Shown piece after piece: positions 8,125 through 55,061 of a DNA stretch of 64,000 nucleotides. The stretch is taken from positions 720 to 64,719 of the forward strand of contig PUNK01000057.1 of NCBI GenBank assembly GCA_003552585.1, in the 5' to 3' direction. Numbering within the stretch: position 1 is the first letter of the stretch; each line of letters starts with the position of its first letter. Source of the DNA: Thermoplasmata archaeon (GTDB taxonomy: Archaea; Thermoplasmatota; Thermoplasmata; Halarchaeoplasmatales; Halarchaeoplasmataceae). The notes under the pieces were generated by a model. The model saw nothing but the letters and a program-made list of their open reading frames with translations, searched no databases and was not told the DNA's origin. Position numbers and translations under genes: made by a program.

Positions 8125-9258
8125 ATGGGATTCGTCATGGAATCTATAATTAATGAAGCTCTAAAAAAGCATAAGAAGGAAGAAAAAATTGGGAAAGAAG
8201 ACAAACGAATAGAGAGTATGGAATCTGCACCAGAAGATGAAGAACTTAGAAAACTTGTAGATACACTAGAAGTTAAGATAAGGATTTTCGGTTGTGGAGG
8301 AGGAGGATCCAACACCATCGATCGTCTGACAGAGGAAGGTATCACTGGCGCGGAGTTGATAGCCTGTAATACCGATGCCAATCATCTTCTTCATACACAT
8401 GCTCAAAAGAAGGTTCTCATCGGAAAGAACCAGACAAGAGGATTGGGCGCTGGAGCTAGACCTGAGGTAGGAGAACAGTCTGCACTGGAGGCTAAAGAGG
8501 AACTTCAGAGATACGTGGACGGTTCAGATATTGTATTTATCACCGCAGGAATGGGCGGTGGCACAGGGACAGGTTGTGCTCCCGTGATAGCAGATATGGC
8601 CAAAGAAGAAGGTGCCTTGGTGATGTCAATAGTTACCATGCCGTTCGAAGGCGAAGGCCGGGAAAGGATGAACAACGCTCAACGAGGGCTGATGAAACTG
8701 GAAAGACATTGTGATACAACGGTTGTCATACCCAATGATAGACTTCTTGAATTGGTACCGAACTTACCTTTGGAAGCTGCCTTCAAGGTCGCAGATGAGA
8801 TACTGATGGAATCGATAAAAGGCATCACTGAAATCATCACCAAACCTGGATTGGTGAACCTAGACTACAATGACGTAAGAACGGTTATGGATGAGGGTGG
8901 TTTGGCAATGATAGGAATCGGCGATTCTGATGATCCGAATACCAGAGTAGAGGATGCAGTGTCTCAGGCAATAAATTCACCACTGTTAGGTGATATCGAT
9001 GTTAGCGAAGCCAAGGGAGCACTCATCAGAGTCATAGGTGGACAGGATATGACGGTAACCGAGGCACAAAGGGCAGCAGATCTAGTTAATGAAAAGATAT
9101 CGAAAGAAGCTAGAATAATCTGGGGTTGCAATGTTGAAGATGACATGCAAAATACGATCAAGATCATGTTAGTGATCACTAACGTGCATTCGGATACTGA
9201 AGAATTCGCAAAGATGTCTATGGGTTCTCTGGGTGACGATATAGACTTAGTCGGATGA
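8125..9258 (+). CDS. ftsZ: cell division GTPase FtsZ
   Basis: GGGGSN, GGGTGTG tubulin signature and T7 loop; ~45-aa charged N-terminal extension. Confidence 0.9.
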
Positions 9259-9307
9259 TGATACCACCAAAAATATAACACCCTTCTTTCCTTTTCTTTA
9301 CATATCT

Positions 9308-9904
9308 ATGATAGCTAAAGGAGCAGGTATCCCGCTTTCACTTGTTATATTATCCAGTATATGTGCAATGCTGCTCTATCTGATGTATGGTGGATTTTTT
9401 GTCTATCTCTCTTTGGCTTTTGTTTTGTTGACACTTTTTTTCATAATATTTTTTAGAGATCCTGAGAGAACAAATGCTGAAGGGATATTATCTCCAGCTG
9501 ATGGTCGGGTAGACGAATTAAAGAAAAAAAGGATTGAGGTATTCATGAATATAACGGATGTTCATGTAAATCGTTCCCCGGTATCAGGTAAGATCGCCAG
9601 TATTAAGTATATTCCTGGCAAGCATAGACCTGCTTTTTCCAGTTCAACGGGTTCAAATGAACGTCTGAAGATTAAGATAGAATCGGAAGATAAAGAGATC
9701 GTATTGACCCAAGTGGCGGGAGTATTCGCAAGACGTATCGTACCCTATGTAAAAGAAGGAGATTTTGTACAAAAGGGTGATAGGATAGGTATGATCCGTT
9801 TTGGCTCTAGGGTGATCTTGGAGTTTTCGCTTGATGTAGACTTTTCTGTTGAAAGAGGTCAAAAAGTCAAAGCTGCTGAAACATCTTTGGGGGTATGGAA
9901 GTGA
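9308..9904 (+). CDS. psd: archaetidylserine (phosphatidylserine) decarboxylase proenzyme
   Basis: FGS self-cleavage motif (MIRFGSRV) and N-terminal TM segment; operon with pssA. Confidence 0.75.
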   Translation: MIAKGAGIPLSLVILSSICAMLLYLMYGGFFVYLSLAFVLLTLFFIIFFRDPERTNAEGILSPADGRVDELKKKRIEVFMNITDVHVNRSPVSGKIASIKYIPGKHRPAFSSSTGSNERLKIKIESEDKEIVLTQVAGVFARRIVPYVKEGDFVQKGDRIGMIRFGSRVILEFSLDVDFSVERGQKVKAAETSLGVWK

Positions 9905-42681: not shown

Positions 42682-43674
42682 TCATTCAAATGCTGTTCCA
42701 CATCCGGGACAGAAACTAACCTCATCTTCTAGTTCTCTACCACATTCAGGACATTCGTAAACGGTCATACCTAGTTCAGTACCACATTTAGAGCAGAAAC
42801 GATCTCCGGAGTCAACCTCAGCATCACATTCGGGACATTTTCCAATCTCTGGTGCTTTTGCTCCACACATATTGCAGAAACGATCGTCCTCTCCCAACTC
42901 ATTGCCACATTCAGGGCATTCAATTATTGTGGTTTTTTGTTGAAGGTCTTCCTCCATATCTTTAACCATACTAACCGGTGAAAATTCTTCTTCCTCACTC
43001 ACTCTTTTTTTACGTCCGATCTTTTGTCCTGCAAGTAGACCCGCCTCTTCCTCGTCGATCTCTCGTTTTGTTTTGACAGCATACCTTAATGCTTCAGTAT
43101 AATCCCCTTCGGAATAGTGTTTTTCAGCCAAGCTCAATAGTCTTTTAGCCTCTTTATGTCCTCTCTCTTTGCAAAGGTCCCGGGCTACTTCAATCTCAAA
43201 TTTTGCTTCAAGATAATTTTCTGGTAGTTTTTCTATTCGTTCCTTCTGCTCTTTAAATTTCTTTACCTGTTCCTGCTCTTTAACGGGAGGTGTGGGAGGT
43301 AATTTTAGATCGCTATCTGTAGTTTTAGGAGAGGGTGCTTTCTTAGTTAGAACCTTTTTTATCGCTGTTTTCGCATCTTCAGCCAACTCTTCTGCTCGTA
43401 GATGGTTGCCAGCATCTAGGGCCAATTCTGCTCGCTCTATGATCATCTCAGCCCTATCCGTTTGATGTCCTTTCTCCCCCATAACCCTGATTATGCTTTT
43501 TGCACTCATCACAGTATTATATGCTTCGGTTTCTTTATCAAGTTCTGAATCCTTTTGTACTTTTTTGATGCGGTCAGGTTTGGATCTCTCTAGGTAAATC
43601 CAAATGATCCATATCACACCTGCGGCAACTGCCAAAACCGCAATCATCAATATAAGAAAGGTTGTTGTGTCCAT
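42682..43674 (-). CDS. N-terminally anchored membrane protein with C-terminal triple zinc-ribbon array
   Basis: TM helix, coiled segment, then CPECG..CNMCG, CPECD..CSKCG, CPECG..CPGCG. Confidence 0.4.
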   Translation of the reverse strand: MDTTTFLILMIAVLAVAAGVIWIIWIYLERSKPDRIKKVQKDSELDKETEAYNTVMSAKSIIRVMGEKGHQTDRAEMIIERAELALDAGNHLRAEELAEDAKTAIKKVLTKKAPSPKTTDSDLKLPPTPPVKEQEQVKKFKEQKERIEKLPENYLEAKFEIEVARDLCKERGHKEAKRLLSLAEKHYSEGDYTEALRYAVKTKREIDEEEAGLLAGQKIGRKKRVSEEEEFSPVSMVKDMEEDLQQKTTIIECPECGNELGEDDRFCNMCGAKAPEIGKCPECDAEVDSGDRFCSKCGTELGMTVYECPECGRELEDEVSFCPGCGTAFE

Positions 43675-43732: not shown

Positions 43733-45298
43733 TCAGACCAACTTAATATACCAAACTGCTAGAGTTTTATCTCCAGTAGTGCTTATATTGTATATAGATG
43801 TGTTTGGTTTCTCACAACTCATCAACAAAGAATTGTACTCTGTGAAAATGTTTATATGTATATCTGCCACATATCTGGCATCCTCAGTGAAAGTGAATCC
43901 AGGTCTCATCATAAGTACTGTCAAACCACTATTCTCTTTCATTATGTCCAATAATTCCTTTGCCAGGGTTGTTCCACGGTCCTCGCTTAACCCTGATTTA
44001 TCTATTAGATGCTCTAACCTTATCCAATCACACACAGTCAACACTGGTGAATCGGTTCTGAATTTGAGTTCTCGGTAGGTTTCTTTAAAGTTATGGACTA
44101 AATCTTCACCTTCACTGGACCGTTTTTCGGGCTCAAAAACTTTAAGACTCTTTCTTACCGACTCGTCTACGATATCTTGTGTTCCTTTTTCAAAGGAGAT
44201 CCTGTCCTTAGATGATGGGATAAAGAGAACTCCTCTTCCTTGTCTTAGGAAATTTGCCATAAGTGGTCCAAACATTATCTTTCTACCTGAAAAAGGCACT
44301 TTGGAGGTAAATTCCATCACGACCAGCCCGTTGTGGGGATAGCCACCATCTAGAATATCATCCAGCATTATGTTTCCTGAAGAAAATTTCATCTTTTTCC
44401 ATGACTCAGTTTTTGGTCCATCTTTTATGATATTTCGAGTCCCATTTACCAGTGATAGATTGGCATCGAAGGGTGGAAGATAATTAAACCTCCCCTCTTC
44501 TAGTGTATATAGATAAACTGGTCTTCCTATAGGTATTCCTCTTAACTTGTTTAATATAAGTTTCCTTATCCTGCGTCCTTCGGTTTCTTGCATCCTTAAA
44601 GTTACGACTCCATCCACTAGATAGTCCCATTTAGTGGATTCTTCCTTTTCAAGAACCAATATTAGTTTAGTACCAGAGATCTCAACCAGATCTTTTTGAA
44701 GAGCCTTTATGAGAGAAGATGTATCAACACCATACCTCTCAACAAGGGATTCAAGACTATCGATGATAATCAAGGAAGGTTCAGGTAACCTCGAATCAAC
44801 ACGACTATAAACCTCCTCTAGCTCAATTATATCCGTACCTTTCATGATCGAAGTAAGATGGGTACGGGACACATTTTCTGGTAGAATGATCTCTTCAAGA
44901 GATCCTTTTTGTTTGAATTTATCCAGGATTCTTCTAGCCTTGTCAACCTTTTCGATCTTATCCTCCCTCTCTTTAACTTTCTCTTGTTTCAAATGAGGTA
45001 AAAGTTCATCTGGACTGTAAATGGATTTTAAAAAGTCCATGCTCGCATCTATGAGGTTTTCTCTAAAATCTCTATCTTTTAGCCACGAAAATTGGCTGTA
45101 AAGTGATTGGTTAGAAACCCTTGTAGAGAAATAAAAGGAATTTTCTATTTTAGCTATTTCCTCCAGGATAGTTAGACTAAGGATAGTCTTTCCGGTACCA
45201 GCAAGACCCTTAATTATGAGTGAACGTCCTGCTTTACCTTTGAAAAATTCGTAAAGCTCCTTCGGTAGTGGTTTTATCTCCATATTACCTCCTCCCAA
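43733..45298 (-). CDS. KaiC-like tandem RecA-superfamily ATPase
   Basis: GLAGTGKTILSL Walker A in domain 1 and a second RecA-like domain; 521 aa. Confidence 0.55.
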   Translation of the reverse strand: MGGGNMEIKPLPKELYEFFKGKAGRSLIIKGLAGTGKTILSLTILEEIAKIENSFYFSTRVSNQSLYSQFSWLKDRDFRENLIDASMDFLKSIYSPDELLPHLKQEKVKEREDKIEKVDKARRILDKFKQKGSLEEIILPENVSRTHLTSIMKGTDIIELEEVYSRVDSRLPEPSLIIIDSLESLVERYGVDTSSLIKALQKDLVEISGTKLILVLEKEESTKWDYLVDGVVTLRMQETEGRRIRKLILNKLRGIPIGRPVYLYTLEEGRFNYLPPFDANLSLVNGTRNIIKDGPKTESWKKMKFSSGNIMLDDILDGGYPHNGLVVMEFTSKVPFSGRKIMFGPLMANFLRQGRGVLFIPSSKDRISFEKGTQDIVDESVRKSLKVFEPEKRSSEGEDLVHNFKETYRELKFRTDSPVLTVCDWIRLEHLIDKSGLSEDRGTTLAKELLDIMKENSGLTVLMMRPGFTFTEDARYVADIHINIFTEYNSLLMSCEKPNTSIYNISTTGDKTLAVWYIKLV

Positions 45299-45654
45299 TT
45301 ATTTAAAATAAATTCTACCTCTTCATCCATGGCATCAAGAACCGAAGAAAAGTTTTCTCTCGTACCTGTCCTGATAATCAGCACATGCTCATCATCGACC
45401 TTCTTTAAAATTGTGTCGCCATCGATTGCCCTCATAACGATCCTTTCAGGCTTATTTTTACGAAGATGCTCGTTTGCTGTGTTCGCAGCCCCAAATATAG
45501 TAGCAGTCATCAAACCAAATGTTTCCAAACTCATATCATCTTCCTTACCCGATGCAGCTACGATGTTTCCATTCTTTTTTAGAAGGATGCATAGCTCTAT
45601 CTCACTCATGCCCCCCAATTTTTTCAACGAATCTAGTACCACCGCTATGGACAT
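45274..45654 (-). CDS. Roadblock/LC7 (MglB-like) domain protein
   Basis: alpha-beta-beta-alpha-beta pattern LKKLGGMSEIELCILLKKNGNIVAASG...; 25-nt overlap with the downstream KaiC-like gene. Confidence 0.55.
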   Translation of the reverse strand: MSIAVVLDSLKKLGGMSEIELCILLKKNGNIVAASGKEDDMSLETFGLMTATIFGAANTANEHLRKNKPERIVMRAIDGDTILKKVDDEHVLIIRTGTRENFSSVLDAMDEEVEFILNNWEEVIWR

Positions 45655-45801
45655 CTCATTACCTCCATATAATACACCTTATTACTCACGACTAAAAATA
45701 ATTTTTCATTGGAAAAAGATTTTCATGTGAAAAAGATTTTAGGCAGGTACAGAGAGCGGACTTTGATAATGATTTTAAACCCCTCCCTCTATACACTTAC
45801 G

Positions 45802-52667: not shown

Positions 52668-55061
52668 TTAATCATCCTCCATAAACGATTCAAATCCCTC
52701 GTTCATCTTCATCTCAATGTGATCGAATCTTTCTTCCCATTTATCTGAAGGAACGTTAGACATCCTACTTAGATCTTCAACAACATCCATCGCCACTATA
52801 TCATCTACTGAAACGCCCTTTTCCACTGCATCCATCCCTCTTTCGTAGAACTCCATCATGATTTCGATCATCCTGAACTGCTTTTCAGGGTCGCAGTAGG
52901 TATCCACATCGTGGAAGGCGTTCTGCTGCAGGAAGTCTTCTCTGATGACACGTGCAGCTTGAAGGGCAAATCTATCGCTTTTAGGAAGAGCATCCGGGCC
53001 GACGAGTTGAACGATCTCCTGAAGCTCCGACTCCTTTTCCAGCAGACGCATGCTCTCTCTCCTGAGTTCATGCCATTTTTCATTAATATTCTCGTTCCAC
53101 CATCCTTTAACCGAATCTAGATATAGAGAATAAGAGCGAAGCCAGTTGACTGCTGGGAAATGACGTTTGTTTCTTAATTCTACATCCAAGGCCCAGAAAA
53201 CCTGCACGATCCTTAGGGTGTTCTGGGTCACTGGTTCTGAGAAATCTCCACCTGACGGACTGACTGCACCGATGACTGAAATCGAACCATCTTCTCCATT
53301 CAAAAGCTCACATATACCTGCTCTTTCGTAAAAAGAGGCTAAAGATGATGCTAGATATGCGGGATAACCTTCCTCACCCGGCATCTCTTCTAATCTACCT
53401 GAAATCTCTCTTAATGCCTCTGCCCATCTAGATGTTGAATCAGCCATAAGTGCAACGTTGTATCCCATATCTCTATAATACTCTGCCAACGTGATCCCAG
53501 AGTACACAGATGCTTCTCTTGCAGCTACGGGCATATTACTTGTATTTGCAATTAAAACTGTACGCTTCATAAGCGGTTCCCCAGTACGAGGGTCCTCCAA
53601 CTCAGGAAAATCCCGTAGTACTTCAGTCATCTCGTTCCCTCTTTCACCACAACCGACGTAGACGACGATATCCGCATCGCTCCACTTAGCTAATTGGTGC
53701 TGGATCACCGTATTATGTAATATCATGGGTGCATTACCGCCTACAAAATTGTGAGTTCCAGGAACGGTAAGATCGTATACATCTTTTGTTTCATCTTTCA
53801 ATTCTACAGATGTAACAGGATCTGGGAGGAAATGATCTAAGTGGTTATGCTCATCTCTTGAAATTCCCACCCTTTCTTCACTCTGTTCATCTCCTTTTGT
53901 TTTATTGATCGCATTCTTCAAAGTGTCTTCTCTAGGTGCTAATAGGGTGTCTCCACTTTGTAGCTTACCAGCCGGTTGCTCTTTGATTTGCTGATCTGAT
54001 GTTAGGACGAAGAGTTTGTGAACCGGTGTCACTTCCACTTCCCGTCCCGAATCGGTTGTGACCACTACAGTACTATCTGTTTTACCTTTATAGATGCATG
54101 TCGCATGCTTTTTAATTATCTTTCCATCATCCATCGAAAGGATGTCCAAAGGATCGTTTAATTCTATCAACTCTTCGTGATCATCAAGGTTTGAATCAAT
54201 TCTCTTGATGCCTTGATCTTTGTACTCTTCGAAAATTTCTTCGATCGCTTTTTTTGTGCCATCGGCTAAGATCACCGGAGTATCTCCGGTTATACATTTG
54301 CCGGTCCCGAACCCCCCGGGTATGGCGGCGGTACCGCCTTTAGCGAGTGGAAAGAATGTATCCAGGACACGCTGTCCGGTGATAAGTAGTTCACCCGGTG
54401 CTTTCTTTCTCCCGATCGGACGTCTTATCCTTACTGGCCACCGCTGTTTCATCTTGATCTCTTCTTCACCGGTGGAAGTTTTTACACGAGCGATAGTATC
54501 TGTTATTGTGTATTCTCCTTCATTGACTATCTCTTCGATTTTCCCGCTGATACCATGAGGCACCATAACTTTGTGTTCTACAACTTTTGTTTCAGGCACA
54601 GTCCCGATGATATCACCTGCTGAAACTTCATCACCCTCTTTAACATCAGGAATAAACTTCCAGTGCTTTTCCTCGTCTAATGGTGGTACATCAACACCAC
54701 GAAGTATGAAATCTCCTGCCTCTGATTTTATGGCCTCCAAAGGACGTTGGATACCGTCATATATCTGCTGTATGAGTCCTGGACCGAGTTCTGCGGACAA
54801 GGGGTCTCCGGTTCGTTTTACGGGTTCTCCAGGCTTCAATCCACCCGTCTCTTCGTAAACTTGGATTGTAGCTACATCTCTCTCTAAGCCTATTATCTCT
54901 CCGATCAGACCAGCTTCACCTACCTCTACTACTTCATACATCTCTGCCCCTTTTAGGTTTCCAGCCTCTACTACAGGTCCAGCGATCCTGTTTATCTCTC
55001 CGACTTGTTCTTTCTTAGGCTTAGAGATACGCTCTATCCGCTTTTCAACATCTTCTTCCAT
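52668..55061 (-). CDS. atpA: A-type ATP synthase catalytic subunit A, interrupted by an in-frame mini-intein
   Basis: 797 aa vs ~585 expected; P-loop GGFGTGK|C...HN|T split. Confidence 0.9.
53712..54296 (-). mobile_element. 195-aa mini-intein in the atpA P-loop (no homing endonuclease domain)
   Basis: starts [13 protein letters not shown] (block A), TPVH (block B), ends [23 protein letters not shown] (blocks F/G) followed by +1 Thr of GKT. Confidence 0.8.

Follow-up and report, generated by a model that had tools for sequence, protein, structure and literature searches.

Conserved pairing of a Roadblock/LC7 gene with an overlapping GvpD/KaiC-like ATPase gene in Thermoplasmatota, a probable signaling module

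In a 64,000-nucleotide stretch of DNA from a Thermoplasmata archaeon (contig PUNK01000057.1; hereafter, the window), we found two overlapping genes on the minus strand that encode a stand-alone, single-domain Roadblock/LC7 protein of 126 amino acids (45274..45654) and a KaiC-like ATPase of the GvpD family (516 amino acids plus the stop codon; 43733..45283). The adjacency of these genes is far beyond chance, and the pair has been passed on as one unit across a superclade of Thermoplasmatota. The pair is probably a signaling module, in which no small GTPase lies next to the Roadblock partner. We lean, by a modest degree, toward the reading that this two-gene operon would act as a GvpD/KaiC-like regulator-partner switch with the Roadblock protein as the cognate partner. 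The GC content of the genome is approximately 40%, and its closest relatives are metagenome-assembled genomes (MAGs) from soda-lake and hypersaline samples, Candidatus Saliniplasma included.

The survey of ATPase neighborhoods was based on 77 loci (one genome per species) and 80 metagenome loci; L-numbers in the following text designate surveyed or related loci. In each locus, open reading frames (ORFs) were called, the ATPase was placed by profile, and the flanking ORFs were clustered all-against-all. A non-redundant set was obtained by collapsing the ATPases at 90% identity (n = 100), and clades were defined on a quick, rough neighbor-joining tree built from pairwise identities. The Roadblock family was the largest neighbor family among the flanking ORFs; it was present in 32 of 150 loci, always on the same strand and immediately upstream of the ATPase gene, with a median distance of -10 nucleotides (nt). 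Twenty-one of the 100 non-redundant ATPases had an adjacent Roadblock gene, and all of them belonged to one Thermoplasmatota superclade of 52 members, where they were interleaved with clades lacking the Roadblock gene; no adjacent Roadblock gene was found for the 48 ATPases outside the superclade (0/48). These absence calls are meaningful because the Roadblock profile also catches other archaeal Roadblock proteins, which score 80-90 bits with it. A single-sequence search with the window Roadblock protein recovered four proteins only, and the first profile iteration, run on genome contigs only, gave seven matches; the profile search that included the metagenome scan yielded 93 relatives. An exhaustive search with the Roadblock profile returned 1677 cluster representatives at E <= 1e-3 and 11 at E <= 1e-30, which indicates that the cognate Roadblock subfamily has few members and merges gradually with the Roadblock family of archaea in general.

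The ATPase start lay between -14 and +7 nt from the Roadblock stop in 26 of the 27 distinct junctions. The exceptional junction, in L003, had no candidate start nearby, and the ATPase ORF opened approximately 130 nt further downstream. Reverse look-ups gave the same picture: all seven stand-alone Roadblock relatives on long contigs were followed by a GvpD-like gene with an overlap of 4-11 nt, and both fusions of Roadblock to a winged helix-turn-helix (wHTH) domain were found directly after a GvpD-like ATPase gene, giving nine of nine look-ups overall. The outer neighbors varied by lineage and included a CLIPPER-repeat protein, Csl4 with two small coiled-coil ORFs and PCMT, a tRNA-splicing endonuclease, an NAD(P)HX repair enzyme, urocanase and formate-tetrahydrofolate ligase (FTHFS). 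Since the flanking genes differ among lineages, it is the pair itself, and not the wider region, that is conserved. Additionally, the pairwise distances of the two proteins were found to co-diverge, with a Mantel r of 0.77 that was reached in none of 5000 permutations; the lowest identities among the pairs were 18% for Roadblock and 30% for the ATPase.

These observations bear on the simplest alternative, namely that the two genes are co-transcribed and co-inherited while their products do not interact, whether because of shared regulation or as a neutral ancestral gene order. The loss of the adjacency in more than half of the superclade speaks for this explanation. However, the two frames overlap or lie only a few nt apart at nearly every junction while all outer neighbors change, the association recurs in another phylum, in the other gene order and fused to a wHTH domain, and both the strong co-divergence and the complete recovery of the ATPase in the reverse look-ups argue against it; we consider such a bystander arrangement quite improbable. 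If the proteins do not interact, the pair would be an ordinary conserved operon of two uncharacterized regulators.

The Roadblock assignment of the small protein was supported by sequence and by structure prediction. The Pfam family Robl_LC7 (PF03259) matched over profile positions 6-89 of 91 with 27.1 bits (E = 3.4e-6), above its gathering score of 23, and most relatives matched this family as well. The AlphaFold2 model, which was built on 57 relatives, had a mean pLDDT of 90.8 and showed helices at residues 3-14, 43-63 and 102-119 and β-strands at residues 19-26, 31-36, 71-76, 79-85 and 90-96. This order of elements in the model, α-β-β-α-β-β-β followed by a C-terminal α-helix, is that of the Roadblock core fold. 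When the model was compared with the PDB by Foldseek, the top rows were all Roadblock-fold structures, with E-values of 1e-9 to 1e-7, TM-scores of 0.8-0.9 and root mean square deviations of 1.4-2.5 Å; they included Asgard Roadblock3 (9jue), Myxococcus xanthus MglB both alone and bound to MglA (6izw/6hjm), LAMTOR2/p14 and a Thorarchaeota Roadblock protein. The original prediction had proposed that the small ORF has a Roadblock/LC7 fold, and the Pfam score above the cut-off, together with the model and its likeness to MglB, Roadblock3 and LAMTOR2, bears this out. The conserved pairing on which its interpretation depended was likewise found in the neighborhood survey, since the pair occurs in 32 of 150 loci, 21 of 100 lineages and seven of seven reverse look-ups and is not unique to one genome; the conserved pairing and the confirmed fold in turn support a specific two-gene module, in line with the ATPase-regulator signaling module that it had suggested for a conserved pairing.

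The most conserved stretch of the Roadblock subfamily is helix α2 (residues 44-60, ETFGLMTATIFGAANTA; 45475..45525, minus strand), as seen in the alignments and within the helix modeled at residues 43-63. The invariant or near-invariant columns in two Roadblock alignments, S50, A51, T52, I53, G55 and A56, are all located on this helix, for which the subfamily consensus is ETFxTLSATIxGAxEV. In known Roadblock dimers, α2 is a core element of the assembly of the two protomers, and the window protein is, from its sequence, probably dimeric through this conserved helix. We also observed a second Roadblock gene of 115 amino acids in L168 (1721-2068, minus strand), which lies approximately 430 nt upstream of the pair in divergent orientation, an arrangement suggestive of heterodimeric Roadblock platforms in certain lineages.

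The larger protein was assigned to the GvpD family by Pfam and by tblastn and was found to be colinear with KaiC. Its best family assignment was GvpD_P-loop (PF07088), with 70.4 bits against a cut-off of 24 over profile positions 3-188 of 189, while KaiC (PF06745) matched with 41.3 bits. The match to PF20440 (GvpD_bR2) was weak (15 bits; cut-off 27.9), and many homologues had precomputed PF20440 matches. A tblastn search against plasmids returned haloarchaeal gvpD genes only. The match to gvpD of Halobacterium pNRC200 covered residues 3-508 in one piece, with 98% coverage, 23.6% identity and an E-value of about 3e-15 to 5e-15, so that the two proteins are colinear over their full length. Their alignment contained 30 invariant columns, among them Walker A, T54-R55 (within the STRV motif), D175-S176 of Walker B, YxVDGV and the arginine-rich GRRxRxxxLxKLRG stretch. 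The proteins differ in a helical insert that is present only in the Thermoplasmatota ATPase, and no RRR is present at the position aligned with the C-terminal RRR of GvpD. This insert of approximately 70 residues follows β2 (residues 85-135; about 44890-45030) and is confined to Thermoplasmatota members; it was not found in GvpD, the TACK members or the Methanothrix members.

In the PDB, KaiC gave the best matches whether sequence or fold was compared. The profile built from 34 homologues was colinear with the KaiC CI domain, linker and CII domain (E = 1e-10), with Walker A placed on the CI Walker A and residues 214-316 on the CI end, linker and CII start. The top 50 PDB matches of the ATPase model in Foldseek were all full-length KaiC, with E-values down to 7e-22 over approximately 540 columns; the global TM-score to KaiC was only 0.32 because the two domains are oriented differently from those of KaiC. 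The AlphaFold2 model itself had a pLDDT of 80.7, and residues 93-130 were poorly predicted (pLDDT below 50).

The motifs of the nucleotide site were located in the N-terminal RecA-like domain. Walker A (GLAGTGKT, residues 26-33; 45185..45208, minus strand) has G26, G29, G31, K32 and T33 invariant in 25 homologues, and Walker B (LIIIDS, residues 171-176; 44756..44773, minus strand) has D175 and S176 invariant. At the end of strand β2, where the model shows a strand at residues 50-53 followed by a loop, the alignments revealed the motif FSTRVS (residues 52-57; 45113..45130, minus strand). R55 was invariant in both alignments, Halobacterium GvpD included, and V56 was invariant in the set of 25 homologues and replaced by Ile in TACK and Methanothrix members. 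We take T54-R55-V56 to occupy the position of the catalytic Glu of RecA/KaiC-type ATPases (KaiC E77/E78), in a stretch that HMMER left unaligned; when profiles were compared with a single-domain KaiC-like protein, the C-terminal domain aligned and the putative Glu site did not. The STRV motif also occurs in GvpD, which makes Thr-Arg-Val a trait of the family. Further along the chain lies an arginine-rich stretch, EGRRIRKLILNKLRG (residues 235-249; 44537..44581, minus strand), in which R240, K246, L247 and R248 are invariant, as is R237 when GvpD is included. EGRRIRKLILNKLRG is the counterpart of GvpD's first arginine-rich region and, in the profile alignment, of the RRRRTLEILKLRG stretch of KaiC.

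The C-terminal domain (residues 300-516; 43736..44386, minus strand) aligned with KaiC CII, its FSSGxxxLDxxLxGG start falling on the start of CII. No GxxxxGK[ST] motif was found in this domain; MEFTSKVPFSGRK stands at the Walker A position, opposite the CII P-loop GATGTGKT of KaiC. As read from these motifs, the ATPase is composed of one live N-terminal and one dead RecA-like domain. The ATPase and KaiC therefore share two tandem RecA-like domains and an adjacent gene for a small α/β partner, as KaiB is to KaiC, but they differ in that the second domain of the window ATPase lacks a P-loop and, by our own reading, in the replacement of the presumed catalytic Glu. The partner also differs, as KaiB has a thioredoxin-like fold and the window partner a Roadblock fold; no kaiA or kaiB was present among the called genes 10 kb on either side. 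Of the original description as a KaiC-like double RecA ATPase, the two-domain architecture was retained, being colinear with KaiC, whereas the notion of a tandem ATPase was not, since Walker A and B are present in the N-terminal domain only and the protein belongs to the GvpD family.

We additionally observed that the first 95 residues of the ATPase match CFTR NBD1 (E = 6e-6), with SQFSW opposite the CFTR Q-loop region (SGRISFCSQFSWI; ATPase residues 52-67, window 45083-45130). Q64, F65 and W67 are invariant in the 25 aligned homologues, which are mostly from Thermoplasmatota, and are not present in Halobacterium GvpD. This likeness may reflect the shared P-loop combined with a chance or convergent SQFSW.

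The overlap between the two genes was shorter than first described. In the mechanical ORF list, the large minus-strand ORF extended from 43733 to 45298, with a TTG start, 521 amino acids and a 25-nt overlap with the Roadblock ORF. The two minus-strand ORFs were indeed located as originally predicted, but neither the 25-nt overlap counted from the TTG nor the length of 521 residues was upheld. The true start is most likely the ATG at 45283, because the public gene call for the ATPase on the same contig gives 516 amino acids from this codon, the N-termini of 24 homologues line up from its Met, and a Shine-Dalgarno sequence is well placed. This sequence, GGAGGT (45287..45292, minus strand), lies 3 nt upstream of the ATG and inside the 3' end of the Roadblock gene. 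From the ATG, the overlap is 10 nt (ATGGAGATAA; 45274..45283, minus strand, by sequence reading), and the ATPase start codon falls within the end of the Roadblock gene; the junction reads ...GGGAGGAGGTAATATGGAGATAAAACC..., with the Roadblock frame closing at the TAA at 45276-45274. The Roadblock gene has its own GGAGGT Shine-Dalgarno sequence (45661..45666, minus strand), 6 nt upstream of its ATG, and the short spacer to the divergent FTHFS gene contains an A/T-rich stretch. At homologous junctions, GGAGG or GAGGTG motifs were likewise seen near the Roadblock 3' end, and ATGA overlaps were common. Since the frames overlap and the ribosome-binding site of the ATPase gene lies within the Roadblock gene, the two proteins are probably produced jointly and in a fixed proportion.

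To place the pair among related systems, we compared it with the surroundings of GvpD-like genes in other archaea. In Bathyarchaeia-type (TACK) loci L052, L166 and L162, a wHTH-Roadblock fusion of 199-208 amino acids is encoded directly 3' of the ATPase gene, with a gap of 0-45 nt. A receiver (REC) domain gene lies upstream in L052 and L166, forming a cluster of REC, GvpD-like and wHTH-Roadblock genes typical of TACK archaea (L166:3047-6447; L052:1428-3930, the latter from Bathyarchaeia); a TackOD1 protein with zinc ribbons follows downstream in L166, and TackOD1 lies approximately 2.5 kb further downstream in L162. GvpD-like genes that are more distantly related mostly have small wHTH proteins as partners. 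In particular, the small neighbors in Methanomassiliicoccales are ArsR/TrmB-type wHTH genes, a FaeA/IclR-type wHTH gene lies directly upstream in Methanothrix, a PadR gene is found beside the GvpD-like gene in a Geothermarchaeales locus, and receiver domains occur beside GvpD-like genes in Bathyarchaeia. The wHTH part of the fusion showed 43% identity (E = 5e-17) to the upstream wHTH gene of Methanothrix. The pNRC200 locus carries the classical gvpACN / gvpDEFGHIJ cluster, in which gvpE, encoding a protein with a PadR-type wHTH, begins 4 nt after gvpD; the wHTH-Roadblock fusion occupies the position that gvpE holds after gvpD.

The common denominator of these loci appears to be a GvpD-type ATPase beside a small partner, usually DNA-binding, on which the ATPase would act; by this comparison, the Roadblock domain would be part of the partner in TACK and the whole partner in Thermoplasmatota. 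It is because GvpD-type ATPases recur beside small partners, with Roadblock as part or whole of them, that we favor the regulator-partner switch. GvpD oligomerizes and controls the level of its partner in a nucleotide-dependent manner, and both its Walker motifs and its arginine-rich region are needed for GvpD to bring about the degradation of GvpE (PMC4390858). By analogy, the window ATPase would bind ATP by its N-terminal RecA-like domain and would probably oligomerize like KaiC and GvpD, and its nucleotide state would govern the binding of the Roadblock protein, itself probably a dimer. Binding would then sequester, release or destabilize the Roadblock protein, after the manner of GvpD acting on the activator GvpE. 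In the TACK loci, where a winged-helix DNA-binding domain is joined to this type of Roadblock domain, the output would probably be transcription.

The comparison with GvpD/GvpE holds for gene arrangement, as a small partner gene lies within a few nt of the ATPase gene in both cases, and it fails in the nature and place of the partner, which is a downstream PadR-type wHTH activator in the gas-vesicle system and an upstream Roadblock protein in the window. Several further points weigh against the switch. The Thermoplasmatota Roadblock protein lacks a DNA-binding or output domain, and the neighborhoods of the surveyed loci contain no conserved target gene near the pair. Thirty-one of the 52 non-redundant superclade ATPases have no adjacent Roadblock gene, so the ATPase evidently can work without Roadblock next door. 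The idea that GvpE might be a hidden Roadblock homologue was rejected, as hhalign gave a probability of 0.3% for their homology and GvpE is a PadR-type wHTH protein; the analogy with GvpD/GvpE rests, as a consequence, on where the genes lie and on the fused form seen in other phyla.

The direction of control could also be reversed, such that the Roadblock dimer regulates the ATPase, either activating it or locking its nucleotide state as MglB completes the active site of MglA, and the ATPase acts on some other target. Roadblock/MglB proteins have long been proposed as NTPase regulators and are established regulators of P-loop NTPases, coupled to and co-evolving with MglA-type GTPases (PMC4316618). 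The window pair resembles MglA/MglB, the Streptomyces conservon and Ragulator-Rag in that Roadblock and P-loop NTPase genes are coupled and evolve together, as for mglA-mglB (PMC4316618). Reversed control is further consistent with the MglB-MglA complex being among the closest structures of the Roadblock protein in Foldseek and with the Roadblock gene being first and translationally coupled, which fits a stoichiometric subunit. In addition, the presumed position of the catalytic Glu is Thr-Arg-Val with an invariant Arg, and hydrolysis may thus be intrinsically weak and need help. Yet GvpD shares the STRV motif and acts together with GvpE and no Roadblock protein, and many ATPases of the family have no adjacent Roadblock gene. 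Moreover, the surfaces around the nucleotide differ between the RecA-like and Ras-like folds, and the TACK Roadblock domain, being fused to a DNA-binding domain, resembles an output rather than a cofactor. On balance, we regard control of the ATPase by the Roadblock dimer as unlikely, although it is the strongest competitor of the switch in which the ATPase acts on its partner. A broader proposal, in which Roadblock domains would be general readers or regulators of the nucleotide state of P-loop NTPases and the Roadblock dimer would here be the cognate subunit of a KaiC/GvpD-type ATPase without its own catalytic Glu, forming an ATP-driven switch or timer, is similarly unlikely in our estimation.

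It is also conceivable that the Roadblock protein serves a Ras/Arf-like GTPase encoded elsewhere and that the GvpD-like ATPase is a hub feeding that GTPase circuit. In L162 (511-5615), and also in L163, we observed a gene for a 406-amino-acid protein in which a KaiC-type ATPase domain is fused to an Arf/Ras-type small GTPase domain, with Roadblock and V4R genes after it; a single-domain KaiC-like gene, a GvpD-like gene and a wHTH-Roadblock fusion gene are oriented divergently from this group. Components of the KaiC-like, small-GTPase and Roadblock kinds thus share one locus, which speaks for a remote GTPase, and the second Roadblock gene beside the pair in L168 recalls heterodimeric Roadblock platforms. 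Against this, no ORF with Ras-like G1, G3 and G4 motifs was found within the window, and GTPase families were absent among the called genes 10 kb on either side (by Pfam) and from seven related Thermoplasmatota loci. We give a distant GTPase circuit little credence. By the same searches, a classical MglA/MglB pair at the window locus was rejected; MglA is moreover a Ras-like GTPase of approximately 200 amino acids, in contrast to the 516-amino-acid, two-domain RecA-like (ASCE-class) ATPase of the window. If Roadblock domains do read NTPases in general, the KaiC-Arf fusion beside Roadblock and V4R in TACK would be an evolutionary bridge from KaiC-like hubs to the Roadblock-GTPase systems inherited by eukaryotes.

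The family name and the full-length homology to Halobacterium GvpD raise the further question of a gas-vesicle function. In Pfam and at NCBI, the family carries the name of GvpD, and an orthologue would be expected to regulate gas-vesicle formation. However, with a GvpA query, no GvpA-like ORF was found in the window and only one of 158 related loci, a Nitrososphaerota one, contained any; no gvpE follows the ATPase gene, the identity to GvpD is low, and the neighbors in the window are FTHFS and a zinc-ribbon membrane protein instead of gvp genes. A gas-vesicle role was rejected on these grounds, and we consider it extremely improbable that the window ATPase is such an orthologue. In the single distant locus, L055 of a Nitrososphaerota MAG, two GvpA-like ORFs (8632-9378) lie 2-3 kb downstream of a distant GvpD-like gene, and this was the sole gas-vesicle context among the 158 loci.

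The zinc-ribbon gene next to the pair (42682-43674, minus strand) encodes a protein of 330 amino acids that has a membrane helix at its N-terminus, a long and charged coiled-coil region and three zinc ribbons at its C-terminus. It begins 58 nt downstream of the ATPase gene, with no oligo-T tract between them. It was rejected as a third operon member, as a homologue occurred only in the nearest relatives, L079 and L085, and the corresponding place elsewhere was taken by urocanase or by PCMT on the opposite strand. Other features of the surroundings were lineage-specific. The two small coiled-coil ORFs between Csl4 and Roadblock (75-81 amino acids, with no Pfam family) were present throughout one subclade (L160:3285-3789, and also L165, L169 and L170). 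In one Thermoplasmata MAG (L006:3341-6500), two paralogous GvpD-like genes are arranged head to head, and neither has a Roadblock neighbor. Elsewhere in the window (about 52668-55061, minus strand), the gene for the catalytic subunit A of an A-type ATPase contains an intein; the public gene call has 797 amino acids and a match to Intein_splicing.

Archaeal signaling is poorly understood. KaiC-like ATPases were reportedly proposed as archaeal signaling hubs with many linked domains by Makarova, Galperin and Koonin in 2017, and these hubs have been proposed almost entirely from genome context, with their partners mostly unknown. The window pair is consistent with that framework, in that a KaiC-family ATPase with an inactivated domain is associated, through the order of the genes, with a small partner domain that varies; the REC, wHTH and PadR partners described above fit it as well. 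An earlier survey of type IV pili (T4P) from 2016, by two authors of the hub paper, noted that the second component of KaiC-like ATPases is rarely predictable and, in a separate context, that of T4P loci, mentioned Roadblock proteins (arCOG02603; PMC4858521). Roadblock-related domains are also known as output domains of response regulators, termed NitrOD3 (PMC5847659). We found no report linking Roadblock to KaiC or GvpD in the searchable open-access literature, which does not cover the full 2017 hub survey. There is a real, though less than even, chance that the association of Roadblock with GvpD-like ATPases is already tabulated in the supplements of that paper. What would be new here is the unexpected fold of the partner, Roadblock, in a GvpD/KaiC-like regulator module.

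Roadblock proteins have been studied as regulators of, or platforms for, GTPases, as in MglB, Ragulator and the Asgard proteins. A census in 2014 counted 328 orphan MglB homologues, none of them characterized experimentally (PMC4316618), and the pair described here would give one orphan group a partner. It raises the question of whether the nucleotide state of a RecA-like ATPase can be read or controlled by a Roadblock domain, and of whether the GvpD/GvpE mechanism is a general archaeal principle that extends beyond gas vesicles. The coupled pair, together with the wHTH-Roadblock fusion in the position of gvpE, offers a concrete and testable two-protein system that is widespread in an uncultivated clade.

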